Assembly: GCA_963805825.1 (NCBI GenBank)
Contig: CAWDVO010000022.1
Location: 79,641-143,640 of the forward strand
Direction of reading: 5' to 3'
DNA: 64,000 nt
DNA from: Candidatus Brocadiaceae bacterium
GTDB lineage: Bacteria > Planctomycetota > Brocadiia > SM23-32
The translations under genes were made by a program, and so were the position numbers. The notes beneath the pieces were generated by a model. It ran no database searches, had not been told where the DNA came from, and saw nothing but the letters and a program-made list of their open reading frames with translations. Below, one piece after another: positions 1,429 to 29,542 of this stretch. How positions within the stretch are numbered: position 1 is the first letter of the stretch; the number at the start of each line of letters is the position of its first letter.

Positions 1429-1468
1429 GTGCCGCCGCACGCACTTACCACTCTTGGCGAGGATGCGT

Positions 1469-13172: not shown

Positions 13173-13174
13173 CC

Positions 13175-14560
13175 TCAAGCGCGCGTCATCTCCGCGCTCA
13201 ACTCCGGCTGCGGCAGGTAGGCCCCGTTCTCGCGCAGCGTCGTCACCAACCGCGCCGTGTCCAGCTCGCAAGCGGCCCGGCCCGTGGCCAGCGACTGCAC
13301 GGCCGCCGTGCCCGCGGCCTGGCCCATCATCGCCGCCGCCGGCATCACGCGGATGGAGCCGTGTACCTGCACGTCGCTGGAGTTGCAGCGCCCCGCCACC
13401 CACAGGTTCCGCCAGCCCTTCGGCACCAGGATGCCGTACGGTATGCCGTGGCACTCGCCCGGCCCCAGCCGGCCCGTCACGTCGCGCTCGCGCAGGTGGC
13501 GCTCCCACTCCTCGTCCGAGCAGTCGTAGATGTGGATGTCCACGAACTTGTTGAAGACACCGATCTGGTCCGGGAACTGCCGGCGCGCAAGGTAGTCGTC
13601 GACCGTCAGCTGGTACTCGCCCACGATGCGGCGCGACTCCCGCACGCCCATCAACGCCCCGGTGCCTACGCACTGCAGCCCCTCGCAGCCCGGAACGTGC
13701 TTCCGGAGGAACTCCACGAACTCCTGCACGAGCCGTCGCCCCTGCGCCATGCCCTCGCTCAGGTCCCGGCAGCGGCAGGCGTTCAGGCCGAAGACGTGCC
13801 CCCCGTTCAGGTAGCCCACGCCGCCGGAGACCGGGCTCATCCCGGGCAGATGGCGGTCGAACTGCGTGAACTCGCCCGCCGACAGGGCCCTGCAGTATTC
13901 GTTGTACACGTTGACGCCGCTCGCCCGCACCGCGGCCCAGTCGATGTTCGCGTGGAGGGACGCCAGGGTGGCCGGCATGATGTCCTCGGTGTCCCGCCCC
14001 GCTTCCCGGTAGGCCGCCCCGCAAAGCGCCGAGAGCACGGCGTCGCCGGTGGCGTCGATGAACGCGCGGGCGGGCACGTAGCGGTAGCCCTCGATGTTGT
14101 GCAGCACGACCCCGCCGACGCGGCCCTCCTCGGCCGCGGCGTCGGCGTCGATCACGCGCGTGAAGAAGCGCACCTCCACCCCGCTCCCGGCGGCCAGCTC
14201 GTCGAGGAGCAGCTTCAGCCCCTCGCCGCTGAACTGCGTCCAGCGGTGGTAGTGCTTCCGCCACGTGTCAGGCTGCACGCCCTCGGCCACGAAGCCGCGC
14301 TCGTGTAGCGTCTCGACCAGCTCGCGCATGAACCCGCCGACGAGCATCCTCTCGCCGTCGGCCATCGGGTCGAAGGCGTTGACCATGCCGGAGGTGCCCA
14401 TGCCGCCCAGGCACCCGGTCTGCTCGACCAGCAGCACGTCCGCCCCCAGCCGCGCCGCGCAGATGGCCGCCGCGCTCCCCGCCGGCCCGCCCCCGGCCAC
14501 GACGAGGTCATACTCCCGATCCACGGCGACATCGCGCACCAACTTGAAGGTCTCAGCCAT
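13175..14560 (-). CDS. FAD-dependent oxidoreductase (FAD_oxidored/PF12831-like)
   Basis: 461 aa: MAETFKLVRDVAVDREYDLVVAGGGPAGSAAAICAARLGADVLLVEQTGCLGGMGTSGMVNAF. Rossmann GxGxxG dinucleotide-binding motif. Antisense ORFs 13050..14264 and 13361..14308 are shadows. Confidence 0.75.
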   Translation of the reverse strand: MAETFKLVRDVAVDREYDLVVAGGGPAGSAAAICAARLGADVLLVEQTGCLGGMGTSGMVNAFDPMADGERMLVGGFMRELVETLHERGFVAEGVQPDTWRKHYHRWTQFSGEGLKLLLDELAAGSGVEVRFFTRVIDADAAAEEGRVGGVVLHNIEGYRYVPARAFIDATGDAVLSALCGAAYREAGRDTEDIMPATLASLHANIDWAAVRASGVNVYNEYCRALSAGEFTQFDRHLPGMSPVSGGVGYLNGGHVFGLNACRCRDLSEGMAQGRRLVQEFVEFLRKHVPGCEGLQCVGTGALMGVRESRRIVGEYQLTVDDYLARRQFPDQIGVFNKFVDIHIYDCSDEEWERHLRERDVTGRLGPGECHGIPYGILVPKGWRNLWVAGRCNSSDVQVHGSIRVMPAAAMMGQAAGTAAVQSLATGRAACELDTARLVTTLRENGAYLPQPELSAEMTRA

Positions 14561-15270
14561 CAGCTCTCTCTCCGTGTTGACGCGGCCCTGGCCCTCCCTG
14601 CAGCGCGGCCCATCATAGCCCCGTCGCCGGCGCCGAGCTCAACGCCCCTGCCCGTGGTCTCCGCGTCGACACCCCCGCCTTGCGCGGCACCTTCGGCACC
14701 CACCTCATCGGGACCTATGGAGGCAGTATTGCGCTCTTGCCCCCCTCCCGTGGACCCTGAGCCAGAAGCGCGCCTCGCCTCCGCGTAGCAGAAGCGCGTC
14801 TGGAAACTCAGGAAGCCATGCGGGCCGGGTTGCACGGGAGGCAGCCCGGTCTCCGCCCAGACCTCCTTGCTGAATCCCACGAACCCGCCCGTCTCCGCAC
14901 CCCGAAGCTCCCATTCGTCGCCCACCACCCGCTTGGTGAACTCGGCACTTTCGCCCGCTGTGGGGTTCACCGGCCCGACGTCGTCGAATTCCGCCGGCGG
15001 GTCCAAAGGACGACCGTTAACTTGGTTCACCATGAAGACGGGCAAGGCAGCCTTCTGCGGAAGCGGTGCCGTCCAGATCCCGCGCACGGTGGCGAGTTCG
15101 CCGAGCGGCAGGCCAAGTCTGCCGACAACCTTCACCCGCTCGGGGATATCGCTCCAGCGCACCACCCGTAGCTGCTCCTTCTGCCCACAGCCGGTTGAGA
15201 TCGACGCCAGAAGCACCAGCAGACACGCAGCAGCCAACCCAGCCAACATGCGTGAGGTGGGCAGGATCAT
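14560..15270 (-). CDS. putative lipoprotein of unknown function (signal peptide with LASISTGC lipobox); disordered Gly-rich tail
   Basis: 236 aa, MILPTSRMLAGLAAACLLVLLASISTGCGQ... Stop overlaps the oxidoreductase start by 1 nt (operon). The C-terminal 70 aa are low-complexity G/A/R-rich and may be partly spurious. Confidence 0.5.
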   Translation of the reverse strand: MILPTSRMLAGLAAACLLVLLASISTGCGQKEQLRVVRWSDIPERVKVVGRLGLPLGELATVRGIWTAPLPQKAALPVFMVNQVNGRPLDPPAEFDDVGPVNPTAGESAEFTKRVVGDEWELRGAETGGFVGFSKEVWAETGLPPVQPGPHGFLSFQTRFCYAEARRASGSGSTGGGQERNTASIGPDEVGAEGAAQGGGVDAETTGRGVELGAGDGAMMGRAAGRARAASTRRES

Positions 15271-15370
15271 TCCGGTGCCCTCCTGTGCTCGATTCCGCCG
15301 AACGCCGAGACCGGGCCCTGCCGCATAGCATACAAAGAGGACCGACGGTATGCCAACCAGGTCCTTGAGC

Positions 15371-15500
15371 CAGAACGGTCTCCCAGTTCATCCGGAGCCA
15401 CATGCGCCAGGCCCCGTTCTCGCCGGAGAGTCCACAGACTCCTGTCCATGGAAGAGAGCGCAGCCGCCTGCCGGAGACAACCGAGACGATGTCGTCGAAC
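15371..15500 (+). repeat. copy 1 (most diverged, with indels) of a ~150-bp intergenic repeat family
   Basis: GCCCCGTTCTCGCCGGAGAGTCCACAGACTCCTGTCCA aligns to copies 2 and 3 (GCCCCGTTTCTGCCGGAGCTTCCACAGACTCGAGTCCG and GCCCCGTTTCCGCCAGAGTTTCCACAGATTCCTGTCCA). A conserved minus-frame peptide motif VCG.SG.NGAW.M..W is present in all three copies. Confidence 0.5.
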
Positions 15501-15556
15501 TGGTCCATCGAAGCCATCAAGGCGCGCTGAACAGGTACATCGCCCAGCCCAGGCAG

Positions 15557-16270
15557 TCACGCCCCCATCGCAGGTAGCCGTCTCGGCCCTTGCGCGCGGT
15601 ATCGAGGAGTGCGTCCGAGTCCGGATCGTCGGGATGGGCTGCCGCGTACGCGTTCGGCAGCCTGCCACTGCAGTCCCTCGTACCTGTCCCAATCGTCCTC
15701 AGAGGAGACGATGGAGTACAGGAATGTAAGACCCAGGTCCACACCGGCCCGGACGTTGCTCGCGTGAGAGCCGAACGACTCGGCCTCCTGTCCGGTCAGC
15801 TTCAGGTATTCCGGCTCCGGGGGAACCTTCCAGAACGGCTCACCCGCGAGCACGAGACCGCCCGGCCTCACCATCTTGCTCAGGGCCTCGAGCGTTCTCT
15901 TGTGCCCCCCATAGACCCAGGAGGCGCCGATGCACGAGGCCATGTCCAGGCTCTCCTGTCGGTCCGGCTCATACTGGCCCCCGTCCATGTTCAGCAGATC
16001 GATACGATCCGTGAGCTGCCGGGCGGCGACGTTCTTCCGCGCTTCCTCGAAGGTGACGGGAGACAGGTCGAGCCCGGTGCCTGTCACCTCGTAGCGTTCC
16101 GCGACGAGGCAGAGAAACTCGGCCTTACCACAGGCCACGTCCAGGACCCGCCCCCCGTCAGGCAGGCGCAGGAGGTCGACGAGTTCCCTGGTCTTGGCCA
16201 GGCTCATCGGGTTCATGATCGTATGGTCGGTGTGGGTGATGCCGAAGTACTTCCACATGTCCATGTCCAC
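15557..16270 (-). CDS. class I SAM-dependent methyltransferase
   Basis: 237 aa; motif I VLDVACGKAE, post-I LDLS, motif II MVRPGGLVLAGE. The C-terminal 30 aa (R/G/P-rich) look like out-of-frame read-through, so a 3' frameshift is possible. Confidence 0.7.
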   Translation of the reverse strand: MDMDMWKYFGITHTDHTIMNPMSLAKTRELVDLLRLPDGGRVLDVACGKAEFLCLVAERYEVTGTGLDLSPVTFEEARKNVAARQLTDRIDLLNMDGGQYEPDRQESLDMASCIGASWVYGGHKRTLEALSKMVRPGGLVLAGEPFWKVPPEPEYLKLTGQEAESFGSHASNVRAGVDLGLTFLYSIVSSEDDWDRYEGLQWQAAERVRGSPSRRSGLGRTPRYRAQGPRRLPAMGA

Positions 16271-17806: not shown

Positions 17807-18227
17807 GAGCGATGCCCCTAAGACACGACACAGGGCAGGCTTACAACTTACGTGCATGCCGTTTCCGCCCCCGTTTCCGCAACGCTTTGGGGTAACCGTT
17901 GGTCAGCGTGACGAGCGCGTCGGATGAGGAGGCCTGAATCGGTTTGGGCCCGGTCAGATGACCGCCCGCCAGGCACAGGTACAGGCGTCAAACTTGATTG
18001 CGATCAGCTGCTCCGAGCGCCTGGCAGTCACGACGCTCGGGCAACTGGCAGGTCAGACTGTCCGGGTTGCACAAGCAGAGCCGAAGGCTTGATCGCAACC
18101 CTTGCGCTGCAGAGACAGGCGGCCTCAAGGGAGCTTTGGCCCCAACTCTGTGCTCCGTGCCGGACCCGCGCGCGTCATAGGTCTGGGCGTCCCGCCACTT
18201 CCACCGGCTTCGTAGGCTCCTTGAGCA

Positions 18228-19640
18228 GGAGATACTCTTGAATGTTGTTGACGGAGGGAGGTGAGCGTATCTTTCGGGGAATGTCGCATTCGTTTCCCTG
18301 AGAGGCTCTCGCCAGAGGGCCAAGGAAGGATACGCTCGATGGGCAAGGATAGCGTGGTGGAGCTGCGAAAGCGAGTGGAAGCCGAGTCCAGGTCCACCCT
18401 GGACGAGACCCTGAGGCGGGGAGCCGAGCGCATGCTCCAGGTGGCGATCGAGGCGGAGGTGGCCGGCTATGTCGAGCGCCACGCCGCCCTGGTTGACGAC
18501 GAGACGGGCCGCCGCCTGGTGGTCCGAAACGGCCATCAGCGGGAGCGCACGATCCAGTCAAGCCTCGGCGAGGTACTGGTCACCAAGCCGCGCGTGCACG
18601 ACCGGCGTGAGGGCGAAGGGTTCACCAGCAGCATCCTGCCTCCCTACCTGCGTCGCACGCCGGCGCTGGAGGCGCTGATCCCCATCCTCTACCTGAAGGG
18701 CGTCTCGACCAACGACTTCCCCGAGGCGCTCTCGGCCATCCTGGGCCAGAATGCGGCCGGGCTCTCGGCCAGCACCGTGAGCCGCCTGAAAGACGTGTGG
18801 CAAAGGGAGCACGAGGAATGGGCGGGGCGCGACCTTACGGGCAAGCGCTACGTCTACTGGTGGGCGGACGGCGTCCACTTCAAGGTGCGCCTCACGGACG
18901 AGCGCCCGTGCCTGCTGGTCATCGTGGGCACGCTCGAAGACGGCACGAAGGAGCTGGTGGCCATTCAGGACGGGGAGCGGGAGAGCACTCTTTCCTGGCG
19001 GGAGCTCTTGAGGGAACTGAAGCGAAGGGGCATGGCCCAGGCCCCTGCCCTGTGCGTTGCGGACGGCGCCCTGGGCCTGTGGGCGGCGATGGCCGAGGAA
19101 CTGCCGGCGGTCAAGGAGCAGCGCTGCTGGGTGCACAAGACGGCCAACGTGCTCGACAAGATGCCGAAGAAGGTGCAGCCGGCCGCCAAACGCCTCATCC
19201 AGGAGATGTACATGTCGTCCACCAGGGCAGCCGCGCTGGAGGCTTACGAGGAGTTCCTGGCGCTCTACGAGGCGAAGCACCCGAACGCCTGCGCGTGTCT
19301 GAAGAAGGACAAGGACGTGCTCTTCACCTTCTACGACTTCCCGGCCGAGCACTGGAGACACTTGAGGACGACCAACCCGATCGAGAGCACCTTTGCCACC
19401 GTGCGGCACCGCAGCCGCCAGACGAAGGGATGCGGCTCGCGAGCGGCCACCTTGGCAATGGTTTTCAAGCCGGCGCGGGAGGCCGAGAAGACCTGGCGTA
19501 AGCTCAACGGCTACGAGCTGATCGCGAAGGTCATCCGGGGTGTGCGATTCGAGGACGGTGTGGAGGCGCGAGAGGCCGCGTAAACGGAGAGCCCGAAGGG
19601 TGCGCCAACACCTCCATCAACAACATTTGACAGTATCTCC
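18228..19640 (+). mobile_element. IS256-family insertion sequence, complete, with imperfect ~30-bp terminal inverted repeats and flanking direct repeat
   Basis: Left end GGAGATACTCTTGAATGTTGTTGACGGAGG (18228-18257). Right end CCTCCATCAACAACATTTGACAGTATCTCC (19611-19640), about 26/30 complementary. Flanked by direct repeat CTCCTTGAGCAGG (18217-18229 and 19637-19649), consistent with an 8-9 bp TSD partly overlapping the IR ends. Confidence 0.8.
18339..19583 (+). CDS. IS256-family (Mutator-like) transposase
   Basis: MGKDSVVELRKRVEAESRSTLDETLRRGAERMLQVAIEAEVAGYVERHAALVDDETGRRLVVRNGHQRERTIQSSLGEV...WWADGVHFKVR...LVAIQDG...CWVHKTANVL is characteristic IS256 transposase sequence, about 414 aa. The track ORF starts at 18261; the in-frame ATG at 18339 was chosen. 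Confidence 0.85.
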   Translation: MGKDSVVELRKRVEAESRSTLDETLRRGAERMLQVAIEAEVAGYVERHAALVDDETGRRLVVRNGHQRERTIQSSLGEVLVTKPRVHDRREGEGFTSSILPPYLRRTPALEALIPILYLKGVSTNDFPEALSAILGQNAAGLSASTVSRLKDVWQREHEEWAGRDLTGKRYVYWWADGVHFKVRLTDERPCLLVIVGTLEDGTKELVAIQDGERESTLSWRELLRELKRRGMAQAPALCVADGALGLWAAMAEELPAVKEQRCWVHKTANVLDKMPKKVQPAAKRLIQEMYMSSTRAAALEAYEEFLALYEAKHPNACACLKKDKDVLFTFYDFPAEHWRHLRTTNPIESTFATVRHRSRQTKGCGSRAATLAMVFKPAREAEKTWRKLNGYELIAKVIRGVRFEDGVEAREAA

Positions 19641-20626
19641 TTGAGCAGGGCCAGTGCCCGGTACAGGATCGGGTCTTCGCGAGGCAGTTCCAGAGGAGTG
19701 GTGGGGACGTGCACGTCAGGCTGTATCCCGCGCCCCTCGAAGCACGTCCCGTCCAGAAGCAGCGCCTGCCAGCAGGGCAACATGACGGTGACGCCGTTAC
19801 AGAGCGCGTAGGGCTGCGGGTTGCCAGAACTGCCGTATGAGGTCTCGCCCACGAGTACCAGCCGCGCACTCGCCTCATCATCAATAAGAAAGCCTCACTA
19901 CTGCTCCTGGTCGCCTGCCCCATGAGCACCGCGGTCTGGGCGCCGTAGTGCGGCCGGCCCCGTGTCGGCGCCAGCACTCTGTCCCATGGTGTGCTGAAGC
20001 CCGAACTGGCGCACGGGTCGCGTAGCTTGTGCCGCGCATAGACGACAGGCTCTCGCACAAAGCACCCAGCGAAGTGTTTGGCCACATCCTCCGAGCCGCC
20101 GCCATTGCTGCGCACGTCGACAACCAAGCCGCCCCCTTGCGAGAAGTTGTTGAGAGCCTCGAATGCGGGCTCCAACTCGAGGACTCTGTCCGCAGACCAA
20201 GTGCCTATCATGACGTACCCGATACCGTCTCCGAATCTGCCGACATAAACGCAAGGACTCGGGTGCGACCACTCGGCGGCGGCCCGCCTAAGAGTCTCAA
20301 GGTTGTAGTTGGGGACCACGTCCGGAGCGAAGCTCAGGAACGTCTCGCCGTCGACCTTCAGCGAGATGTGGGGGTCTCTGGCGTGCCCCAGGAGCAGGGC
20401 CGCCGCCCTCGCGAAGGCGTAGGGGGAATCAGCCCAAAGCAGGGACGCTGAATGCTCTTCGAAAAGACCGGCCCAGTCCAGGGAGTGAAGGCGATAGTAA
20501 GAGTATGAGTAATCAACTATGTCCTTCAGTTGGGCGGCGGCCGCCGTGTTGCGGGCACGACATCGGGCGATGTCGCGAAAGGAGGCAACCACTGCCCCGA
20601 TGCGGGTCCGGAGGTACCTGGCAGCA

Positions 20627-21058
20627 TCATTCATCCGAAATCCGGATCTGCCCCTCGAGGGATCTTACCAGATCTCGCCTAAACTCGGCGGCCGCCTTGC
20701 ACTTGCCGTGCCACAGCCAGTCGTGGAAGTGGAACTTCTCTGGACATTCCGGATTACTACACGCACGTACAGGGAAGTCCCGACAGACCTTGGGCCGCAC
20801 GTCATAGATTACGCAGAATGCCTTGCCATCGCGATGGTCCAGAAACGGGCACTCCTCTTTGCGCCACGGCTCATCCCCGTTGTCCGGATCGATCAGACGC
20901 CCACAGCACGGACAGATGTCCTTGAGCACGTCTTCCCTGCCGAGAGAGCGCCATCGTTCAATGTCGTCGCGGTGCACCATGTTGCGCAGCCATGCACCAC
21001 CTTTGCAGCACGACCCGCAGCGCTGGCATTTCCATGACAAGTCTGCCTTCGTTCTCAT
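20627..21058 (-). CDS. YkgJ-family CxxCxxCC (PF03692-like) zinc/iron-chelating cysteine-cluster protein
   Basis: 143 aa: MRTKADLSWKCQRCGSCCKGGAWL... with C-x2-C-x2-CC plus further Cys/His (CPCCGRL, CPF, CSNPEC). 8-nt overlap with the downstream S41 start; 24 nt after the B12-rSAM stop. Confidence 0.6.
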   Translation of the reverse strand: MRTKADLSWKCQRCGSCCKGGAWLRNMVHRDDIERWRSLGREDVLKDICPCCGRLIDPDNGDEPWRKEECPFLDHRDGKAFCVIYDVRPKVCRDFPVRACSNPECPEKFHFHDWLWHGKCKAAAEFRRDLVRSLEGQIRISDE

Positions 21059-21082
21059 TGCGGGGCGCTCCAGTGAGTTAGG

Positions 21083-22837
21083 TCACACCATGACAATGGC
21101 AGCTAAGTTGTCTTCACACTTCCTGTAGGTTCGCATGCACAGAGCTGCTGCCCGGTCGCGACCGCCAGGGTCACCGGCACTCAACCGGTCAGCGATCTGC
21201 TCGAAGGTAAGCTTCCCCGCGAAGTAGCGGTAGCACTCCCTTTCCTCCGCGGTGAGTTCGAACGCTTTCGGCGAACGCTCGTTGATGACAAAAGAGTCGT
21301 TCCAGGCGGAAAGGGTGTTCCCGTCAGCTCGCACGGGCGCGCACGCCATCAGACGTTCTGCCAACACTTCGGACAGAAAGCGATGGTCCTTGCGGCGCCT
21401 ACGTGTGACGATGTCCTCCACGTGGCGAAAGCGCCAGAGCTGCCTGACAATGAGGGACAACATCTGGCGTTCGGACGCAAGTACCACGAACTCCTTGAGT
21501 TCTGCAGCCGTTAGGAACGAGCATGCCTTGTCGAAGCTGTATCTCGATACCTCGTCCTTGAACAGGGTGACGAGCTGCTCGACCTGATCGCGCGACAGCT
21601 CGGAATTCCCCCCAAAGCAGTCCCTCGCAACAGTCCCCGTCACAAAGTCGTCATCCAGAAGCTCAAGGCCCCACGCTTCGGCGTTCTCCCTGAACTCTGT
21701 GCCGGGGAAAGGCGTAAGGGCCGAGACCTCAAGTTCAATCCGCCCGGGCGCCAAGTCCACAAGGCGCTTGGCGAACTCTATGTCACCGCGCACGTCTTCC
21801 TCCGTCTGCCCGGGTAAGCCGCATATAAAGGCCCCAAACACCGTAGGCACGGCAGCTTCGCTGCACTGGCTCACGACGGCCGTGATCTGCTCGACTCGCG
21901 TCTGCTTGTTCATCCGATCCAGCAGCGCCTGGCTGCCCGATTCGATGCCGATCTGCAGGCGCACAAGCCCTGACGCCTTCATCCGCCGGACTAGCTCAGG
22001 GTACTTCGCCAAGACGTTCACCCGGCCTTCGCAGTAGAACCCGAAGCGCGACTTGTCCGGGAACAGGCGGTCCATGATGTCGCAAACGGAATGGACCCGC
22101 TCGGGCGAGACAGTGAAAGTGTCATCGGCGAAGCTCAGATACAGCGCCCCCGCTGCATACCTGTTCTCGAAACGCCGCAGCTCGGCCTCGACCTGAGCCA
22201 TGCCAAGGGGCCGGTACCCGTGAGTCTTCCGGCCCTCACTGCAGAAGTGACAGGCATAGAGGCAGCCACGAGATGTCACTACGGAGGCCATATAGGGCGC
22301 GTCTTCGTCCAGCAATGAGTAATCCGGCAACGGAATGCACGCCACGTCTGAATATGGCCCGAAGTCCACCGGGGTCGACCGCGTCTTGCCATCCTGGACG
22401 TAAGTCAGGCCAGGTATCGCCGGCAAAGTGCCCTCGTCTTCGAGGAGATACCGGGCCAGCAGCAGCATGGGGTACTCTCCCTCCCCCCGCACCACGATGC
22501 GCCTTTCGGTGGCGTATGGCTCTGCCATGCAGGTCACGTGGGGGCCGCCCAGCACCACCGTGACTTGCGGGAACTCCGCCAAGACACTGTCACTCAAGCG
22601 CACGACACGGAAGATGTTGTCGCTGTCGCAGGTGAAACCCACGAGGCAGCGCTCTGTCCCGTCGACGGCTTGCTCGACATCAGGCCACGAGAGGTCATCG
22701 AGCTGTAGGTCGAACACAATTGTCGGAATGCCGTGGTCGCGCAGGACGCTACCGAGGTACAAGAGGCCAAGCGGTGGGCGTATGGCCCCACCACGACTAG
22801 GAAAGCGCACCGGCGCATTGACCAGTATTACCTGCAT
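21083..22837 (-). CDS. B12-binding (class B) radical SAM enzyme
   Basis: N-terminal cobalamin-binding-like domain (MQVILVNAP...GLLYLGSVLRDHGIPT...VVLGGPHVT) followed by radical SAM core CLYACHFC (C-x3-C-x2-C) and TIM-barrel motifs (LQIGIESGSQALLDRMNK). Start at internal ATG 22837 chosen to avoid a 78-bp overlap; the track start is 22924. Confidence 0.7.
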   Translation of the reverse strand: MQVILVNAPVRFPSRGGAIRPPLGLLYLGSVLRDHGIPTIVFDLQLDDLSWPDVEQAVDGTERCLVGFTCDSDNIFRVVRLSDSVLAEFPQVTVVLGGPHVTCMAEPYATERRIVVRGEGEYPMLLLARYLLEDEGTLPAIPGLTYVQDGKTRSTPVDFGPYSDVACIPLPDYSLLDEDAPYMASVVTSRGCLYACHFCSEGRKTHGYRPLGMAQVEAELRRFENRYAAGALYLSFADDTFTVSPERVHSVCDIMDRLFPDKSRFGFYCEGRVNVLAKYPELVRRMKASGLVRLQIGIESGSQALLDRMNKQTRVEQITAVVSQCSEAAVPTVFGAFICGLPGQTEEDVRGDIEFAKRLVDLAPGRIELEVSALTPFPGTEFRENAEAWGLELLDDDFVTGTVARDCFGGNSELSRDQVEQLVTLFKDEVSRYSFDKACSFLTAAELKEFVVLASERQMLSLIVRQLWRFRHVEDIVTRRRRKDHRFLSEVLAERLMACAPVRADGNTLSAWNDSFVINERSPKAFELTAEERECYRYFAGKLTFEQIADRLSAGDPGGRDRAAALCMRTYRKCEDNLAAIVMV

Positions 22838-22845
22838 AGACACGA

Positions 22846-24078
22846 TCAGTTCGCTTTCCGCATGACACGAACGGCCAGCAGCACTGAAAGCCCAACCACG
22901 ACGACTGCTGCGCCCAGTCCCCACGGCAGCCAGTTCCCGGCCGGCGCAACTGGGACAGCGGCAACCGGCGCAGCACGGGGTTCTCGGACTTCAGCCGGCC
23001 CGCCCTCGGGCGTGTGCGTGAAGGACTTCGCTGGCAGCGCCGCTGGGGCACCGGCACCGGCAGAGGAGCTAGCAACCTCCAGGAGCGCGCCAGGGCGTGG
23101 CTCCAGGACCGCGTCTGTCCTGTCTCTTGCCGCGGCCAGGAGTTGCTTTGCTGTGCCGGCCATGTGGTGGGTGGGGAACCGGGCCAAGTAGGTCTCGAAC
23201 CATCGCGCTGCCTCCGAGTATAGTCCCGCATGGAACGCCGTCTCCCCAAGCCGGTAATAGAGGGCCGCCAATGCCGGATCGACCCGGTTGTCGCGCAGTT
23301 CCGATTCGGCGACAACGTCAAACTCATACAGCCGCAAGCTGCCAGGCTCCTGCACGATCCCGGGTGTCTCCAGCGGGAAGAAGTAGGCGGCCCGACATAT
23401 CCAATCCCTGTTCCTATAGGACCGGATCAGCTGCCGCTCCCCTTCCATGAAGCCCGCTCGATCGCTCTTGTATTTCGTGAGGTAAACTTCGAGCAGTTGG
23501 CCCAGGAACAGCGATTGCTGCACTTGCCAGTCCTCCGTTCCGCCCTGCGATGCCTCTTCCAGCAAAGCGTTCCCCGCCGACAGAATGCTCAATGCCGTGC
23601 TGTCTGAACCAAGTCGGACTGCAGTCCGGGCATTTTGCAACAGCATGCGCCCCGCAGAACCGCACTCCTGCGACAGAGCAGTCCCCCCTCCCTCCACCAG
23701 GCCGGCAACGGTCTTGCTGCATTCAGCCAGTTCAGCAATGTGCTTCTGACGTAGCGCAGCCAAAGCGGCCCCGCTGGCTGCTGCCGTCTGGAGGTCACGG
23801 ACATGGTCGAGCTGCGCCGCCAGCTCCCCATACTGCAGCAATTTCAGATGCTGCACCGTCTCGTCCTGCGTTCCGCCGGTCGAAAGTTCGCCGATCTTCG
23901 TCATTTGGCGGGTAATGAGTTCTGCCGCCTCGCCAAGACGTCCGCCTGCGATCAGTTCGACAGACTGTCTCCGGGTCTGGAACATCTGCCCCACAAGCTC
24001 TCTCGCGGTCTCGGCGGATGCCGTTACGCAGAGCGACACGACTACCGCGATGGCTACAGGAATGCACCGCCGTTTCAT
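22846..24078 (-). CDS. membrane-anchored periplasmic protein with N-terminal signal peptide, TPR-like helical region and C-terminal TM anchor
   Basis: 410 aa. MKRRCIPVAIAVVVSLCVTASA signal. TPR-like YYRLGETAFHAGLYSEAARWFETYLARFP. C-terminal WLPWGLGAAVVVVGLSVLLAVRVMRKAN. Confidence 0.55.
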   Translation of the reverse strand: MKRRCIPVAIAVVVSLCVTASAETARELVGQMFQTRRQSVELIAGGRLGEAAELITRQMTKIGELSTGGTQDETVQHLKLLQYGELAAQLDHVRDLQTAAASGAALAALRQKHIAELAECSKTVAGLVEGGGTALSQECGSAGRMLLQNARTAVRLGSDSTALSILSAGNALLEEASQGGTEDWQVQQSLFLGQLLEVYLTKYKSDRAGFMEGERQLIRSYRNRDWICRAAYFFPLETPGIVQEPGSLRLYEFDVVAESELRDNRVDPALAALYYRLGETAFHAGLYSEAARWFETYLARFPTHHMAGTAKQLLAAARDRTDAVLEPRPGALLEVASSSAGAGAPAALPAKSFTHTPEGGPAEVREPRAAPVAAVPVAPAGNWLPWGLGAAVVVVGLSVLLAVRVMRKAN

Positions 24079-24094
24079 CTGTCACCTCCTCCTT

Positions 24095-25045
24095 CTACGC
24101 TGTGAAACAGACGGCAACTATCGCGCTCCCAATCACGCCTGTCGTCAGATTCGCGACCGTCGGGTCATCGTCCGCGCCGCAGCTATGAGTATAACACGAG
24201 TCGAAGTCAATGCCAAGTAAACAGCCGTCACTCGGACCGCATACGTTTGAAGTCCCACATGTGTTGCTTGCAGGCTTCCCGCACGTGTTCGTTGGCTCAC
24301 AGAAGTCCTTCTCGCAGTAATTCGTAACGTTGCAGGAATTCTTGAGTTCACACTCGTTGTCGTCCATGCAGACGTTCTCATCGTCGCATGAGTTCAGTCC
24401 CCAGCAGTGATCTCGAGTCGCGCAGGCATTAGCAGCTTCACAGTTGTCCGTGCCACCGCACAGATCATAGTCACACTGATCTGTCGAGGAACACGTGTCC
24501 GTTCCACTACAAGCGTTAGTGCCCGCGCAGATGTCTGACACGCAATTGTCATTGACCCAGCATGTATTGTAGCCCTTGCATCCGTCGCTGCTCTGGCAGT
24601 AATCGGTCGCGCAGTTGTTGCTGCTGCCTGTGCATGTGTCATATGCCTGGCAGTGATCGTCCTTCCCGCAGTCATTACGTCCCTGACAATAGTCACCGCT
24701 GGCACACGAGTCGTTCGTGTTGCACGTGTTCGTGACAGTGCAGGTGTTGCTCGTCGTACAATTATCCGTCGTCTCGCATGTGTTGTAAGTGCAGTTGTTT
24801 GTGCCGGAGCACACATTGGACGCGTTACATGTGTTCGTCGTACACGTCTTCGTTACCAAACACGTGTCAGAGCTGGTGCACGTGTTTGAGCCGCACGTAT
24901 AGGTTGGAGTACAGTTACAGTCTGCATCGGCTGCCCTCGGAGCCACGCCGCTGCCAACCAGCATGAGCCCTCCGACAGCCAGCGCCGTCTGCCCTACTGA
25001 GACGAGGAAACGCCGCCGACTACTCCGGTTCTCGTTCCGCTCCAT
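24095..25045 (-). CDS. Tat-signal cysteine-repeat protein: about 43 Cys arranged as about 40 consecutive C-x4/5 repeats rich in T/N/D/S; candidate substrate of the adjacent radical SAM/SPASM enzymes
   Basis: 316 aa. MERNENRSSRRRFLVSVGQTALAVGGLMLVGSGVAPRAADA is a twin-arginine signal. Then CNCTPTYTCGSNTCTSSDTCLVTKTCTTNTCNASNVCSGTNNCTYNTCETTDNCTTSNTC... continues for about 260 aa with Cys every 5-6 residues. About 18 C-x3-D and several C-x3-N motifs. Ends in a hydrophobic tail TVANLTTGVIGSAIVAVCFTA. Confidence 0.7.
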   Translation of the reverse strand: MERNENRSSRRRFLVSVGQTALAVGGLMLVGSGVAPRAADADCNCTPTYTCGSNTCTSSDTCLVTKTCTTNTCNASNVCSGTNNCTYNTCETTDNCTTSNTCTVTNTCNTNDSCASGDYCQGRNDCGKDDHCQAYDTCTGSSNNCATDYCQSSDGCKGYNTCWVNDNCVSDICAGTNACSGTDTCSSTDQCDYDLCGGTDNCEAANACATRDHCWGLNSCDDENVCMDDNECELKNSCNVTNYCEKDFCEPTNTCGKPASNTCGTSNVCGPSDGCLLGIDFDSCYTHSCGADDDPTVANLTTGVIGSAIVAVCFTA

Positions 25046-25125
25046 AAGTCACCTCCCTTTGGCATTTGGCTCAGCCTTGGCCGAGGCAGCGGTGCTGGCC
25101 GCGACCGATGCTGTTACTCAGTGGC

Positions 25126-26322
25126 TTACCATGTCCAGTGAAAGACCCAATCATGCAGCTGACTGTAGAAGGGGGGATCACTCTCACTTAGCCAGGCGAG
25201 ATGGCTCGCGATGGAAGCATGGACCACCCTCATCGCCTTACAATACCCAGAACCGGGGTCGAACAGGTCACCGTTGGTCTGCCAATTTGCTGCCGGGCAC
25301 CCACCGCCGCAGAACACTGCTGCCTCGCAGTTCGAGCAGTCTGACTTCAGGTCCTTGCGCACATCCACGGTCAGGAAGGCCCCCCGGCGATCGGGATGCC
25401 AGCCGCCGCCGGTATGGCCAATCAGCCATTCTTCTCTGGCTTCGATACCATTGAACCTATGGCATGGCCAGAGAAAGCCCTCGACGTCGACATGCAAGAG
25501 GCCCCGGCCCGCCCCGCAGGGCGCCGGCTGCATCGGCTGTCCATCACGCTGTACATACCTGTCCAGCCAGGTAAGCGAGTAGAACCTGCCTGCATTCTTC
25601 ATGCGTTCGGTGTGGATCCGCAGCACTTCCCGAGTTTGCTGAGCGAGCACCTCAAGTCGGTCAGCCGATTCCCACGCCGCAGAATGAGCAAGGTCGAACG
25701 CCACCTTCAGAAAGCCCTTGTCCAAGAAGTACGCGAAGCTCTCCGCCATCCGGTCCACCGTTTCCGGCACAACCGTGCTTCGAGCATGCGTTGTCCTCCA
25801 CGCCTTGAAGATACGCCGGAGGTTGCGCTCAACGGTCGCCGAGCTTCCCGTGCCGTCGGGATAGACGCGGGCGGCGTCCTGGACCTCTGGCACCCCGTCG
25901 ATCGACGAATGGATGCCTATATGCCAGAAGCGGAACAGCTCAAGATGCTCTTCAGTGAAGCGCGTCAGATTCGACGTGATGCCCACCGTCAGTTCTTTGT
26001 CGCGCTGACGACAGTAGTTGACGGCGAACGGCATCCAGTCTCGCAATGTGTCGAAGGCACACATCGGTTCGCCGCCCAACACCGAGATGTGCAGTTGTTC
26101 AGCGTCGCCCGAGTGCTTCACAAGCCATCGCACCATCTGCTTGGCGGTCTCCATGCTCATCCGGCGACGGAGCATGTCTCCCTTGAAGCAGTACGTGCAC
26201 CGAAGGGTGCATTCCTCCGTGAAGTCGACATCGAGCGACCTCACGGGCATCTCAAGAGGCGAGGGCCCTGTCTCCGGGAACGCTATGCGTTTCTTGAACA
26301 GAGTGCTCTCAAACGTTGGCAT
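25126..26322 (-). CDS. radical SAM / SPASM-domain enzyme (anSME/PapB/QhpD-like peptide-modifying family)
   Basis: 398 aa. CTLRCTYC (C-x3-C-x2-C) at residues about 38-45. C-terminal SPASM motifs CGAGRG...WPCHRF...CSNCEAAVFCGGGC...YCKAM. Confidence 0.75.
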   Translation of the reverse strand: MPTFESTLFKKRIAFPETGPSPLEMPVRSLDVDFTEECTLRCTYCFKGDMLRRRMSMETAKQMVRWLVKHSGDAEQLHISVLGGEPMCAFDTLRDWMPFAVNYCRQRDKELTVGITSNLTRFTEEHLELFRFWHIGIHSSIDGVPEVQDAARVYPDGTGSSATVERNLRRIFKAWRTTHARSTVVPETVDRMAESFAYFLDKGFLKVAFDLAHSAAWESADRLEVLAQQTREVLRIHTERMKNAGRFYSLTWLDRYVQRDGQPMQPAPCGAGRGLLHVDVEGFLWPCHRFNGIEAREEWLIGHTGGGWHPDRRGAFLTVDVRKDLKSDCSNCEAAVFCGGGCPAANWQTNGDLFDPGSGYCKAMRVVHASIASHLAWLSESDPPFYSQLHDWVFHWTW

Positions 26323-26977
26323 CTGCGTGCTCCATGGCAGCCGGCGACACGGCCATGTGTTCCAGGCGCACTTGCCCCTTGCTGCAGACCCAATGGCTGC
26401 GGGTGCCCGGCCGGGCTGTGGGCTCGTGCTGAGAGGTGAGGTCCGAGAGGAAGCCCTCCATAAGGGACTTCCGCATCTGGCATCTCAGCGCGAATGCACG
26501 GTCGTCGCTGGCAGCCGCAGGGCCGCCCCCAGCCAGCAGGTGGCATTCGCCGCCACAGAAGTAACGGAGCGCGCACTCCCCGCACTCAGTCCTCAGGGAT
26601 GGGGCCTGGTCTGCCGGTTCGAGCAGGGACCTCCAGCGCTCCTCTGACTGCGGTGCCAGTTGTGACGGTCTTCGGCGGCATTCCCATAAACAGCGCCCAA
26701 CGCGGCCGTCGCCATGCACGTAGACCGCCAGCCCGCACGCAGCCCGGCATCCGTGACAGTTCGGGTAAGCCCCGAGCCGCTTTCGCAGCAGTTGGTACAG
26801 TGTGTTCTGCGTCAGCGGAGGCCTGTCGCTGCCAACAACGTGGTCAAGTATCTGCTGGATCTGATCGGGCGCGGGCAATTGAAGCTCGGTACGCCGCTGC
26901 CGGTATCTCTGGCGTGCGAAGAGGTATGCTAAGAGAATAGAGGAAGCTCTCCCCCCACCTGTCCCAGAGCGTATCAA
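26309..26977 (-). CDS. Cys-rich protein with SPASM-like motifs but no recognisable radical SAM core
   Basis: 222 aa with NCHGCRAACGLAVYV...CLWEC...CGECALRYFCGGEC. Overlaps the 287-aa gene by 134 bp and the rSAM start by 14 bp. Could be a stand-alone accessory protein or the 3' half of a frameshifted gene. Confidence 0.4.
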   Translation of the reverse strand: MIRSGTGGGRASSILLAYLFARQRYRQRRTELQLPAPDQIQQILDHVVGSDRPPLTQNTLYQLLRKRLGAYPNCHGCRAACGLAVYVHGDGRVGRCLWECRRRPSQLAPQSEERWRSLLEPADQAPSLRTECGECALRYFCGGECHLLAGGGPAAASDDRAFALRCQMRKSLMEGFLSDLTSQHEPTARPGTRSHWVCSKGQVRLEHMAVSPAAMEHADANV

Positions 26978-27707
26978 GCGCCTCGCGAAGAACGCCGGAT
27001 GTGCGTCGGCTCAACACGAAAACGACGTTCAACAGAAAACCCCGTTCGATAAGGTAGTCGAGCCCTGATAGATGCTCTTCGCGCAGGATGCCACTGAGGA
27101 AGAGGCTCATGCGCACGTTCGGAACAATGAACATGCTGAGCTTCTTCACATCGGAAACCGCCACCTGCAAAGGCATGTCAAGGTAGTATGTGATTGGCCT
27201 CTGCGGCCCTCCGCCGAACGCACGACGGATGAAGGAGACCACAGGGACCAGTCTGTCATACAGCGACTTGCGGGCGTCAACACGGTTACAGATGAACTTA
27301 ACGTTGATTGGAGGCCCGCCAGGAAAGATGTCCCTGCATGCTTGCGCGCACGCCTCCAGCGAACGAAGCACCTGGCGCCGATTTGTCTGCGTGGTATCGA
27401 TGCGGATTGTCAGCGGGTCCGGACCGCGACTGTCTTGAGCGTCGCGTGTGCCGTTACAGGGAGCTGAGTCCCCGTCATGCTCAGGAACTATGATCCGATG
27501 GTCAGAGAGGAAGGAAATGAGGCCAGTCGCCAAGCTACCCAGATCACCAGCGCGTAGTGAACTCAACAGCGCTTCCGCCTCGCTGCCGCGGGCCACGGAT
27601 AGCGACAGGATGGAATTCCGACTGATTGAACAAGTAGCAAGTGCCGTCCGCGCTGTGGTAGGCCACGAGCCGGCCGGCTGTTCGGAAATGCTTCGCCGCG
27701 GACTCAC
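26844..27707 (-). CDS. hypothetical protein, first gene of the radical-SAM operon
   Basis: 287 aa, no recognised motif (one C-x3-C, CAQACRDIF). Start at 27707 lies 28 bp from the terminal IR of the IS427-like element. Confidence 0.4.
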   Translation of the reverse strand: MSPRRSISEQPAGSWPTTARTALATCSISRNSILSLSVARGSEAEALLSSLRAGDLGSLATGLISFLSDHRIIVPEHDGDSAPCNGTRDAQDSRGPDPLTIRIDTTQTNRRQVLRSLEACAQACRDIFPGGPPINVKFICNRVDARKSLYDRLVPVVSFIRRAFGGGPQRPITYYLDMPLQVAVSDVKKLSMFIVPNVRMSLFLSGILREEHLSGLDYLIERGFLLNVVFVLSRRTSGVLREALDTLWDRWGESFLYSLSIPLRTPEIPAAAYRASIARARSDPADT

Positions 27708-27735
27708 ATGGCGACGACTTGTCTTGAACTCTCAT

Positions 27736-28750
27736 AGGGCTCTGTAGAAAACCTACGGATCGGTAGTTAGAGGATCATGAGGTCGTGTGTCAGGACGCGG
27801 ACATAGCACTCGGCGTGACGCATGGCCCGCTTGCGCGCTCTGAGGCTGTCGCCCAGCCGCCGCTTGTGCTGGCTGATGGCGCTCTCGACGTGCGAGCGTT
27901 GGGCGGCCTTGCGCACCGGGAAGTGGCTCTTCATCTGACGCCTGTAAGGGCCCTTCGGCCTCACCTGCGGCCGTCCTCGGTCGTTGATGGGGATGATGGT
28001 GCAGGCGATGCCCAGCTCTTCCCTGCACAGACGGTGATGGGCCTCCGAGTCGTAGGCCGCGTCGGCGTAGAGGGTGTGGATGCGGAGCCGGCCTGCGGCC
28101 GCCCGCACCAGCGGCGGCAACAGGGGCGACTCGTTGCCCGGGCCGGCCCGCGCCAGGGCAGAGGCAAACATGTGCGTGCTGTGCTCGCAGAGCAGGGCCA
28201 GGCGCGGGAAAGGCGTGTAGCTCGAGGTGCGCCGTCCCGTGCGGCGCAGGTAGTAGGGGCTCACATGCCCGCTCTCCAGTCCCGTGGCGTCGACGGAGAC
28301 CTCGGCCTGCTGCGGTATCAGTCCGCGCTGTGCCGCGCGGGCGAGAGCAGCATCGAACAGAGGTCCCCAAAGCCCCTTTTTTCCAGGCGCTGCTGGGCCT
28401 TCTGCACGGTGGTGAGATGGGGGAGCTTCTTCAGGTGCAGGGCGTCTCTGAGCGCAGGCAGGTCGGCCAGCAGCTGCACCATGCCCCGCCAGTCGGTCTT
28501 GAAGAACTGCCGCAGCACCATGATGGCGAAGAGCTGGGAGAGCGTGAAATCGTGGCGCGAGCTGCTGCTGCCATAGCGTGGCAGGCCCTCCTCGCCGAGG
28601 GCGAGGGCCTCCTGGGCGAGGGCCAGCGGGGACTTGCTCATGCTGCGCGAACTGGGCATCGGCCGGCTCCCGTAGGGAAGTCTCTGTGGCCATAGCTGCT
28701 TTACTTGTGCCCATTCGCCGACCCCTAAGTCAAGTTTTCTACAGAGCCCT
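27736..28750 (-). mobile_element. IS5-family (IS427-group-like) insertion sequence, 1015 bp, perfect 17-bp terminal inverted repeats AGGGCTCTGTAGAAAAC, flanked by CTCAT direct repeat
   Basis: Left AGGGCTCTGTAGAAAAC at 27736-27752. Right GTTTTCTACAGAGCCCT at 28734-28750 is the exact reverse complement. CTCAT at 27731-27735 and 28751-28755. Two overlapping transposase ORFs inside. Confidence 0.75.
27767..28659 (-). CDS. IS5-family transposase, orfA and orfB joined by a putative -1 frameshift at an A6G run
   Basis: orfA (about 114 aa from ATG 28659): ...SSRHDFTLSQLFAIMVLRQFFKTDWRGMVQLLADLPALRDALHL (DUF4096/InsH N-terminal-like). orfB in the -1 frame has a DDE domain ...VSVDATGLESGHV...LYADAAYDSEAHHRLCREELGIACTIIPINDRG. 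Slippery site CTGGAAAAAAGGGG on the minus strand (A run = complement of 28377-28382). Confidence 0.7.
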
Positions 28751-29006
28751 CTCATAGGACAAACCCTTCGGGCAGAGCCACACACCTACGCAATGTCGCA
28801 GCCGTTCACGTGATCTCCGGCCTCCTGTCCGCGTGCACGTTGTCCAAGAGCAAAGGAGTACAGCCGCACGTACGCCGACTGGTGTCTAGCTCAGCGATGG
28901 ACCTATCGACACAGCCTGCGTTCGCTATGCGCCTCGGGCAGCTTCGTGCTGTCCACCTTCCCACCTGTCCTTGCCATACACTTGCACCAAGGTCGCGGCT
29001 CAGAAC

Positions 29007-29276
29007 CTAAGTGACTATAGAACCACCCGCATCACGCTCTCGCTCTGGTTTGCCCGCATTCTCATCCAACCGGACGGCGTCCATGACCTCCTTCTCGACC
29101 TGCTCCTTGAGGCCCTGCGCCTCGCCGACGCCTCTCTTGAACTCAACGACGCTGCTGCCCAGCGAGCGAGCTATCTTCGGCAACCGCGTGCCGAAGAGCA
29201 GCAAGACTATTCCTCCGATGAGGATCAGTTCCCATGTTCCAAGCGGACCAACTACGGCGATGACAAAGGACCCCAT
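29007..29276 (-). CDS. tatA: twin-arginine translocase subunit TatA/TatE
   Basis: MGSFVIAVVGPLGTWELILIGGIVLLLFGTRLPKIARSLGSSVVEFKRG matches the TatA TM helix plus amphipathic helix signature (LLLFG..KLP...LG....FK). Start may be 29294 (MKEDSGM...). Confidence 0.7.
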   Translation of the reverse strand: MGSFVIAVVGPLGTWELILIGGIVLLLFGTRLPKIARSLGSSVVEFKRGVGEAQGLKEQVEKEVMDAVRLDENAGKPERERDAGGSIVT

Positions 29277-29290
29277 GCCACTGTCCTCCT

Positions 29291-29542
29291 TCACACCTTT
29301 ATGTTGTCAACGTCGAACTGCTGGATGACCAAGGTTGCGCCCAAGTCACTGGCGACCTTCTTCATCTCGTCTTTCAGGCGGGCACACTCCGGGCATGACT
29401 CGCCCGAAAAGGCGCAGGCGTGGATGACCGGCTTGGCTAGCGGGTCGCAGCGACCGGAAGAAGACGCGCATACGACGAACAGAGCCACAGCAGCGCTCAG
29501 GGCCAGGAAGCGGGCCGCTGTTCTGTCGTGGCTTCTCCGCAT
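29291..29542 (-). CDS. small secreted thioredoxin/glutaredoxin-like protein with CPEC motif
   Basis: 83 aa. Signal-like MRRSHDRTAARFLALSAAVALFVVCASS, then CAFSGESCPECARLKDEMKK...ATLVIQQFDVDN. A C-x2-C in a thioredoxin-like context; low-confidence fold call. Confidence 0.4.
   Translation of the reverse strand: MRRSHDRTAARFLALSAAVALFVVCASSSGRCDPLAKPVIHACAFSGESCPECARLKDEMKKVASDLGATLVIQQFDVDNIKV

Follow-up and report, generated by a model that had tools for sequence, protein, structure and literature searches.

We analysed a 64,000-nucleotide stretch of DNA from a Candidatus Brocadiaceae bacterium (assembly GCA_963805825.1, contig CAWDVO010000022.1, positions 79,641 to 143,640), hereafter called the window, and describe a minus-strand gene cluster within it. 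The cluster is built around a cysteine-repeat protein that carries a predicted twin-arginine translocation (Tat) signal and a radical S-adenosylmethionine (SAM) enzyme with a SPASM domain, which is the putative maturase of that protein. The first-pass annotation of this DNA had proposed an eight-gene minus-strand operon. All eight open reading frames (ORFs) are present on the minus strand in the order given there. However, the first two of them, orf287 and orf222, form a single gene, here called orfX, and the gene for an S41 peptidase lies beyond the span that had been assigned to the operon (20627-27707). Judged by comparison with homologous sequences, the cluster is composed of seven genes, one of which is frameshifted, because orf287 and orf222 together correspond, over their whole length, to single proteins of relatives. 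Neighbouring genes overlap by up to 14 nt or are at most 80 nt apart, a tight spacing that is consistent with a single transcription unit. A scan for promoter and terminator consensus sequences gave matches at chance level only, and Rfam returned no match over the whole window, including no cobalamin riboswitch.

Table 1. Genes of the cluster and flanking features, in window coordinates.
Feature	Position	Strand	Evidence or remark
orfX (orf287 26844-27707 + orf222 26309-26977)	26309..27707	-	1-nt frameshift near 26880-26890
Radical SAM/SPASM maturase (putative), 398 aa, without N-terminal RRE domain	25126..26322	-	PF04055, TIGR04085
Cys-repeat protein (putative substrate), 316 aa, 44 Cys	24095..25045	-	repeat statistics, hydropathy, homologues beside maturase
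TPR-like protein, 410 aa, predicted signal peptide and C-terminal anchor	22846..24078	-	sub-threshold TPR_2/TPR_16
B12-binding (class B) radical SAM enzyme, 584 aa from the most likely start, M30	21083..22837 (ORF to 22924)	-	PF02310 + PF04055
CxxCxxCC (YkgJ-type) protein, 143 aa	20627..21058	-	PF03692
Short-form S41 peptidase, without signal peptide	19642..20634 (ORF 19531-20634)	-	PF03572
TatA-family protein	29007..29294	-	PF02416, E 1e-11
Insertion sequence (IS) element, DDE_Tnp_1 transposase 27767-28714; context only	27724..28762		29-nt inverted repeats, PF01609
IS256-family element, transposase 18261-19583 on the plus strand; context only	18227..19641		31-nt inverted repeats, NF033543 303 bits, PF00872

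For comparison, more than 90 related loci were gathered from one genome scan, one metagenome scan and look-ups of exact proteins, and were grouped by the similarity of their maturases. They are referred to by number (L001, L002 and so on) where they have to be told apart.

The N-terminus of the Cys-repeat protein, MERNENRSSRRRFLVSVGQTALAVGGLMLVGSGVAPRAADA, contains a twin-arginine motif (SRRRFLVSV), a hydrophobic stretch (segment 13-31) and an AxA-type site (APRAADA). The hidden Markov model for Tat signals, TIGR01409, gives no hit to this protein, and the corresponding proteins of relatives score only 13-16 bits against a cutoff of 16.7. The signal region is followed by about 40 units of the form x-x-x-[N/D]-x-C across approximately 250 residues, with 30 of the gaps between successive cysteines measuring six residues and eight measuring five. 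Asn or Asp, the former as frequent as the latter, stands two residues before the cysteine in 38 of 42 cases, as compared with a background frequency of 0.23 for the two residues combined (binomial P about 4e-20). Within hexads an Asn or Asp at this position is equivalent to the pattern C-x3-[N/D]. Among 20 substrates there are 254 Cys-Cys gaps of at least five residues that are not of six, and Asn or Asp occupies position -2 of the downstream cysteine in 220 of them and position +4 of the upstream cysteine in 28. Because Asn or Asp tracks the downstream cysteine in these non-hexad gaps, we take [N/D]-x-C to be the conserved unit, and the alternative repeat unit C-x3-[N/D] is disfavoured. The remaining, presumably non-reactive, repeat positions vary freely. 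Neither a tandem repeat at the DNA level nor a longer period in the protein was found, and the repeat pattern is therefore maintained at the protein level and does not reflect recent slippage. The protein ends in a hydrophobic, Gly/Ala/Val-rich tail of 21 residues (296-316; DNA 24095-24160).

No Pfam or NCBIfam family matched the Cys-repeat protein. Searches with it of a sequence database, which failed to recover even the query, and of the PDB sequences gave no match, most probably because of composition filtering; its homologues were identified instead by their position beside the maturase gene and by tblastn. Across the loci these are predicted Tat-signal proteins with 16-67 cysteines that are mostly arranged in hexads. 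Two further arrangements of Cys-repeat proteins were observed. L038 has two 140-residue ORFs with [ND]xC repeats (2893-3312 and 4184-4603), both bearing an RR motif, downstream of one maturase, and L063 encodes a CxxxC-repeat protein with an RR motif and 22 cysteines (5949-6497) approximately 1.6 kb upstream of a more distant radical SAM/SPASM enzyme. Tat-type signals may be common among the substrates of Cys-repeat maturases.

The putative maturase matches PF04055 (47 bits) and the SPASM model TIGR04085 (47 bits against a cutoff of 27, E 2e-12). Across 25 homologues, no variation was seen in the cysteines C38, C42 and C45 of its SAM-cluster motif (CxxxCxxC) or in seven SPASM cysteines. The closest solved structure is that of CteB (5wgg, E 8e-30), in which residues 26-353 of the query align with residues 95-427 of the chain. 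Because this alignment begins only at chain residue 95, the maturase lacks an N-terminal recognition element (RRE) of the kind found in enzymes that act on peptides made by ribosomes and modified after translation (RiPPs). Its highest NCBIfam scores are to PapB (NF047865, 217.4 bits against 340), the nif11-peptide radical SAM family (185), QhpD (TIGR03906, 170.7 against 453) and the SCIFF maturase (128 against 425). We considered and rejected two named identities. An anaerobic sulfatase-maturating enzyme (anSME; TIGR03942) is disfavoured by a score of 63 bits against 349, by the linkage of the gene to [ND]xC proteins, and by the nearest sulfatase gene in the window being approximately 10 kb away and not syntenic in relatives. 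A role in the maturation of quinohemoprotein amine dehydrogenase (QHNDH), as for QhpD, is disfavoured by the score below cutoff and by the lack of qhp-type genes among the ORFs of the cluster or their Pfam and NCBIfam hits. The concern raised in the first-pass annotation that the enzyme might belong to a well-defined housekeeping family, such as anSME, is thus answered in the negative by its score against the anSME model and by the 217 bits it reaches against PapB.

The gene upstream of the maturase, orfX, is interrupted in the window. Its two parts, orf287 and orf222, lie in different frames and share 134 nt, and reading of the DNA places a 1-nt frame change near 26880-26890. Taken together they match, over the full length, single proteins of 415-478 aa whose genes lie directly upstream of the maturase gene in every relative. 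By itself orf287 has no Pfam or NCBIfam match, and orf222 has a weak match to SPASM. The "SPASM-only Cys protein" of the first-pass annotation is therefore not a gene of its own, orf222 being the C-terminal half of a pseudo-radical-SAM paralogue. In its intact layout the protein consists of a putative N-terminal RRE/PqqD-like unit, a barrel of the radical SAM fold without the CxxxCxxC motif, and a C-terminus with a SPASM-type Cx2Cx5Cx3C motif. Homology to the maturase extends from just past the SAM-cluster motif of the latter to its SPASM motif (hhalign 94.5 %, E 7.6e-8). The Cx2Cx5Cx3C motif is present in the window and in four of five relatives, and has been lost in the Hydrogenedentes copy. 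An intact homologue was modelled with AlphaFold2 (AF2) at low confidence (pLDDT 53), and the model has a unit of three strands and three helices at the N-terminus, followed by a beta/alpha barrel; in this N-terminus the strands fall at residues 4-33 and the helices at 37-65, with a pLDDT of only 50-72. A search of the orfX profile against PDB sequences gave only noise. The family is rare, with 23 representatives at E <=1e-3 among 1.84 billion clustered proteins. It was found in all close relatives for which upstream sequence is available, and the sister clade has an orfX-like protein that has diverged and bears a SPASM-type motif. In relatives, the sequence directly upstream of orfX encodes an extracytoplasmic function (ECF) sigma-like region (L002 1601-2386) or a FecR-type protein (L010 8862-10004).

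The association of these genes extends well beyond the window. We counted co-occurrence at loci with at least 2.5 kb of sequence on both sides of the maturase gene, scoring same-strand ORFs with at least 10 [ND]xC motifs within 3.5 kb. Such an ORF is present in 7 of 8 close relatives (at least 42 % identity) and in 14 of 15 loci of the next clade (31-36 %), as compared with 2 of 13 more distant loci. The eighth close relative, L008, has a shorter version of the substrate with 16 cysteines. An RR motif was found in 19 of the 21 [ND]xC ORFs of the close relatives and the next clade. The first-pass annotation had allowed that the genes might have been brought together by chance. Synteny in relatives holds for orfX, the maturase, the Cys-repeat Tat protein, the TPR-like protein and the B12-binding radical SAM enzyme. 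On the basis of these sequence comparisons the conserved core is the [N/D]-x-C Tat protein, the radical SAM/SPASM enzyme without a peptide-recognition domain, and orfX, with S41 peptidase and TatA genes recurring nearby. The records of the relatives name Phycisphaerae, Planctomycetota and Candidatus Hydrogenedentes; most occurrences of the system are in Planctomycetota, and a single branch is in Hydrogenedentes.

The B12-binding enzyme scores 54.6 bits against PF02310 (cutoff 32.1) and 73.2 bits against PF04055, and has the architecture of class B radical SAM enzymes. Its translation most likely begins at M30 (22837), as called in L095. It reaches no named NCBIfam subfamily, scoring 110 bits against 578 for HpnJ, 86 against 750 for ApyD, and 78 against 282 for the RiPP C-methyltransferase model TIGR03975, and its nearest solved relatives are AprD4, CysS, OxsB and TokK. 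The TPR-like protein has hydrophobic segments at residues 3-25 and 382-409 and only sub-threshold matches to TPR_2 and TPR_16; the bulk of this protein is predicted to face the periplasm. At the same positions as in the window, homologues of the B12-binding enzyme with 39-52 % identity are encoded in L002, L005, L006 and L010, and homologues of the TPR-like protein in L002, L003, L005, L010, L014 and L021. Of the close relatives, only some have the pair (the window, L002, L005, L006, L010, L014 and L021), and no gene for the B12-binding enzyme is present in L008, in L018, in the Hydrogenedentes version (L011) or at any sister-clade locus. Coupling of two radical SAM classes, which had been put forward as the defining feature of the cluster, is thus confined to one sub-clade. 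The hydrophobic Gly/Ala/Val tail of the substrate (in the window, L002, L005, L006 and L010) coincides exactly with the presence of the B12-binding enzyme, and all loci with the tail also encode the TPR-like protein. We regard the tail as a lead to the target of the B12-binding enzyme, the loci being related and the correlation for that reason carrying little weight. In the place of this enzyme, several sister-clade loci encode GT4 glycosyltransferases, and one a Wzy_C/O-antigen-ligase-like protein (L042 8932-10665 and 11921-13102; L066 8254-9888; L043 10242-11636), which hints that the Ser/Thr/Asn-rich repeat proteins of that clade are glycosylated.

The S41 peptidase matches PF03572 (39.8 bits, cutoff 24), and its SS-ES serine motif, NGGG motif and histidine are invariant across seven homologues. 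It aligns end to end, at 31-38 % identity, with S41 genes of L066, L030, L042, L037, L010 and L006. Compared with the 821-aa and >1200-aa forms of L006/L010, it lacks some 200 residues at the N-terminus as well as the C-terminal domains. We nevertheless reject the view that it is a truncated remnant of such a protein, as it matches genes of 369-387 aa in the sister clade over its whole length. The long forms carry a Tricorn_C1 domain and a signal peptide. S41 homologues lie within 8 kb of the system in nine relatives (L006, L010, L030, L037, L042, L043, L051, L055 and L066), so that the association of the peptidase with the other genes, as first suggested, is upheld. A gene for TatA directly follows that for the B12-binding enzyme, inside the cluster, in L005, L010 and L014, and lies nearby in L043 and L055. 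The TatA protein of the window is 40-43 % identical to the cluster TatA proteins of L005 and L010 and is possibly, on this similarity, the counterpart of the TatA linked to the cluster in relatives; an IS element stands between it and the cluster. The CxxCxxCC protein scores 33.4 bits against PF03692 (cutoff 23). Outside the 99 % identical twins L094 and L095, which are of the same lineage as the window, its gene has no counterpart in the 90+ related loci. It had been counted as a member of the system, but it is probably lineage-specific and not part of what is conserved.

Our preferred interpretation, in which we have somewhat better than even confidence, is that the window contains one copy of a conserved system for the maturation and export of a Cys-repeat protein, in which Cys-Asx thioether staples would be formed in the cytoplasm before the protein leaves by the Tat pathway. 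The comparisons show gene content, synteny, the repeat rule, homology and the fold of orfX; the thioether chemistry and its register are inferred, as are the function of the product and the roles of orfX, the B12-binding enzyme, the S41 peptidase and the TPR-like protein. The RiPP-like interpretation of the first-pass annotation is retained in part: the synteny and the non-housekeeping nature of the enzyme support it, whereas the gene count, the membership of the CxxCxxCC protein and the central position given to the B12-binding enzyme do not stand. In the cytoplasm, the radical SAM/SPASM enzyme would join each cysteine sulfur to a side-chain carbon of a nearby Asn or Asp. The acceptor would most likely be the residue two positions upstream of the cysteine, giving dozens of small thioether rings. 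One thioether per repeat is the simplest reading, because each repeat offers one cysteine and one Asn or Asp in a fixed register. The catalytically dead paralogue orfX would supply peptide recognition in trans for a maturase without an RRE, and might hold the substrate, possibly through its N-terminal or Tat-signal region. In the clade of the window, the B12-dependent enzyme would add a second modification, probably C-methylation.

The cross-linked and rigid protein would then be exported by Tat, for which relatives encode a dedicated TatA. A Tat signal and a dedicated TatA fit such a product because a stapled protein could not thread through Sec. The anchored, periplasmic TPR-like protein and the S41 serine peptidase may act on or with the product. 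The TPR-like protein would meet it in the periplasm because it has a predicted signal peptide and C-terminal anchor, and the peptidase may trim the C-terminus of the substrate. The product is probably an envelope or surface protein.

Several characterized systems share parts of this proposed pathway. PapB links Cys to the beta-carbon of Asp in six CX3D motifs of PapA, and tolerates CXnD with n = 0-6 (PMC9413430). It is the best-scoring family for our maturase and likewise a radical SAM enzyme with a SPASM domain, and both substrates have repeated motifs of Cys and an Asp-type residue, the hexads described here reading C-x3-[N/D] as in the precursor of freyrasin. In contrast to that system, the score is 217 against a cutoff of 340, the maturase lacks an RRE, and the substrate is a 316-aa Tat protein with ~40 motifs rather than a short leader-core peptide. 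Furthermore, the putative acceptor is equally often Asn and Asp, with a conserved register of [N/D]-x-C in place of C-x3-D, and a pseudo-radical-SAM protein, an S41 peptidase, a TPR-like protein and a B12-binding radical SAM enzyme are additional. An acceptor upstream of the donor, the orientation of [N/D]-x-C, has a precedent in NxxcB, for which the beta-carbon of an Asn upstream of the Cys is the site of linkage (PMC9389541). However, the spacing there is NxxC and not NxC, NxxcA is a streptococcal, quorum-linked peptide with a single motif, and the NxxcB-like family is not among the 25 best NCBIfam hits of our maturase.

The likeness to the QhpD system concerns the size of the substrate and the order of events. 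QhpD cross-links Cys to Asp or Glu in the protein subunit QhpC in the cytoplasm, after which a serine protease trims the product and export follows (PMC7876137). It is the third-best family for our maturase, and the two systems would have in common a radical SAM/SPASM enzyme, a serine protease (QhpE in that system), export to the periplasm and a cytoplasmic protein, rather than a peptide, as the proposed recipient of several thioethers. However, qhpA, qhpB, qhpG and qhpF are missing here, and QhpC has three links and a quinone cofactor rather than a 40-fold repeat. QhpC is exported by an ABC transporter after its leader has been removed, and its protease is subtilisin-like, in place of the Tat signal and S41 peptidase in the window. 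CteB, the closest structure, is also a thioether-forming SPASM enzyme with a Cys-rich substrate, the SCIFF peptide of thermocellin, and forms a gamma-thioether (PMC9389541). It has an RRE, residues 1-94 of CteB being unmatched by our maturase, and SCIFF peptides are of approximately 45 aa with six cysteines. CefA/CefB and the CXXX-repeat system (NF038108/NF038107, TIGR04115) also pair radical SAM/SPASM maturases with peptides that have a regular cysteine period, and a pentad-rich relative of the substrate, in L027, reaches 26.5 bits against the CefA cutoff of 30. The window maturase, however, scores 65 bits against 600 and 114 against 350 for these families, its substrate matches neither, and the peptides concerned are short (the CefA model has 65 positions). 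We found no publication under the name "Cys-every-fifth".

The Tat pathway itself offers an analogy for orfX. TorD and DmsD are cytoplasmic proofreading chaperones that bind Tat signals, as orfX might do if it holds the substrate back in the cytoplasm for as long as maturation lasts. They are unrelated to orfX in sequence and fold, and binding of the signal region by orfX would be a purely hypothetical parallel.

We found no description of the system in curated families or in the searchable literature, which omits most subscription journals; to that extent the remark in the first-pass annotation that no cluster of this composition has been described is confirmed. Ranthipeptide- or QhpC-type chemistry on a protein-sized repeat substrate would be a variant for which we found no published description. 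Genome-mining surveys probably already label such loci automatically as "ranthipeptide". That class is characterized by thioethers from the sulfur of Cys to a non-alpha carbon of the acceptor, by a fixed motif of Cys and an Asp/Glu-type acceptor, and by a short precursor whose leader is bound by the RRE of the maturase, whereas here there is a 316-aa substrate with a predicted Tat signal and a maturase without an RRE.

Other explanations of the family have to be weighed against thioether stapling. The Cys-repeat protein could be a beta-solenoid held by disulfides or by a Cys/Asn ladder, of a structural, adhesive or ice-binding style and mostly not thioether-linked, with the radical SAM enzymes making only one or a few modifications (a cross-link, an epimerization or a methylation). 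It resembles beetle antifreeze proteins, in which every sixth residue is a cysteine, and beta-helices with their Asn ladders. A strict six-residue period with no longer one, in a sequence rich in Thr, Ser, Asn and Asp, would suit such a fold, and the constant spacing between Asn or Asp and Cys could reflect a turn or a ladder in the fold instead of a reaction site. However, Tat export with a dedicated TatA fits a protein that is fixed before export, whereas disulfides normally form after export by Sec; the sequence matched no solved structure and gave no confident model; and the nearest enzymes with known chemistry, PapB, QhpD and CteB, all form thioethers from Cys to side-chain carbons (PMC9413430, PMC7876137). 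We consider a beta-solenoid unlikely. The chances are smaller still that the protein binds metal or iron-sulfur clusters, as a metallothionein-like protein or cluster carrier whose cofactor the SPASM proteins handle. Tat substrates are classically loaded with cofactors, 44 cysteines with neighbouring Asp or Asn could serve as ligands, orfX retains the cluster-binding SPASM cysteines without a SAM cluster, and a putative metal-chelating CxxCxxCC protein is encoded in this lineage. The latter, however, lacks conservation among the loci, a spacing of one Cys every six residues leaves out the CxC and CxxC pairs that are typical of metal sites, and the maturase keeps an intact catalytic CxxxCxxC motif and is closest to cross-linking enzymes. 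Equally improbable, in our judgement, is a multi-core precursor that the tricorn-type S41 peptidase would cut, after cross-linking, into many small thioether-cyclized peptides. The recurrence of S41 genes with the system, the Tricorn_C1 domain of the long forms, the shortness of the repeats and the uniformity of their reactive positions would all accord with it. Against this, no conserved cleavage motif separates the repeats, their non-reactive positions vary freely, S41 is missing from some loci with long flanks, and instead of a peptide exporter there is a Tat signal on the whole protein together with, in this clade, a C-terminal anchor. Each of these three alternatives is less consistent than thioether stapling with the relatives of the enzyme, the spacing of the motifs or the export signal.

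A further explanation concerns the window copy and not the family, namely that the cluster is here a decaying remnant without present function, whatever its relatives do elsewhere. L095, which is 99.94 % identical to the window over 6.2 kb, has one extra C at ~19859 and an intact 374-aa S41 ORF, so that the window sequence represents a 1-nt deletion. The frameshift in orfX would be a second lesion. An IS256-family element abuts the 3' end of the S41 gene, replacing only its last few codons, with the same junction in L094 and L095. The other IS element (27724-28762) sits 17 bp upstream of the start of orfX, where it separates the cluster from the TatA gene and from any native promoter. In a sister population, represented by ENA ERZ25039500 from another sample, head genes of a Mu-like phage (portal, capsid and head-tail joining; L094 1-5512) are fused at 25547 to the interior of the maturase gene, and an independent Logan contig (L095, position 1) ends at exactly the same base, which suggests a phage insertion polymorphism within this gene. 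However, the other five genes are intact, and DNA identity to L094, L095 and L001 is at least 99 % where these cover the cluster, with no further decay. The indels are perhaps errors of assembly, as L094, a contig of the same DNA, has 23 gap openings in 8 kb. The site of the orfX frameshift is read from the window sequence alone, as the Logan contig L001, which is 100 % identical to the window, ends at 26879, short of it. A remnant is possible but, on this balance, doubtful.

Several points nevertheless weigh against the stapling and export system that we prefer. The window copy may be inactive, because both orfX and the S41 gene are frameshifted and an IS element lies between the cluster and the DNA upstream. 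No curated family, PapB included, is matched by the maturase at or above its trusted cutoff. A single-sequence AF2 prediction of the substrate reached a pLDDT of 36 and gave no usable model. The assignment of an RRE to orfX follows only the order of secondary-structure elements in a predicted model, with a pLDDT of 53, that leaves out the SPASM part; orfX has no match to the Pfam family PqqD (PF05402) and no Pfam hit at E up to 1. The short-form S41 peptidases have no signal peptide whereas the long forms have one, which clouds the compartment and the role of this enzyme. Finally, the co-occurrence counts overstate the independent support, because the related loci are not phylogenetically independent.

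Were the proposed chemistry correct, no other ribosomal product known would be as heavily cross-linked as the Cys-repeat protein, and radical chemistry of the RiPP type would be building a whole exported protein in place of a small peptide. Covalent rigidity acquired before export would be a reason for using Tat beyond the loading of cofactors, and a paralogue of the enzyme without catalytic activity would provide substrate recognition in trans. The product would be a new candidate for the Cys-rich, robust envelope proteins that have long been noted in Planctomycetota (PMC8567305). A tolerant [N/D]-x-C rule in a relative of the promiscuous PapB would also be of interest for the stapling of peptides and proteins. 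A more elaborate picture, which we offer tentatively and with clearly less confidence than the pathway itself, is that ~40 consecutive Asx-Cys staples (up to ~65 in relatives) would form a redox-insensitive, protease-resistant rod in the envelope or at the cell surface. The Tat signal and N-terminal region would double as a RiPP leader read by the dead paralogue, acting as a hold-back chaperone, and the clades would differ in decoration, with B12-dependent methylation of a membrane tail in one and glycosylation in the other.

Some features of the window outside the cluster were also observed. GC content drops at ~16 kb from 0.68-0.69 (window 1-16000) to 0.58-0.65 (16001-64000), and is lowest in the cluster (0.58-0.63); this step could be an island boundary or a chimeric join. 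A sulfatase gene (PF00884, 37412-39301) and a secretin gene (39992-41101) lie ~10-12 kb upstream of the cluster. Sigma-like and FecR-like sequences (59375-59869 and 58187-58453), found 30 kb from the cluster, resemble those that stand upstream of orfX in relatives.

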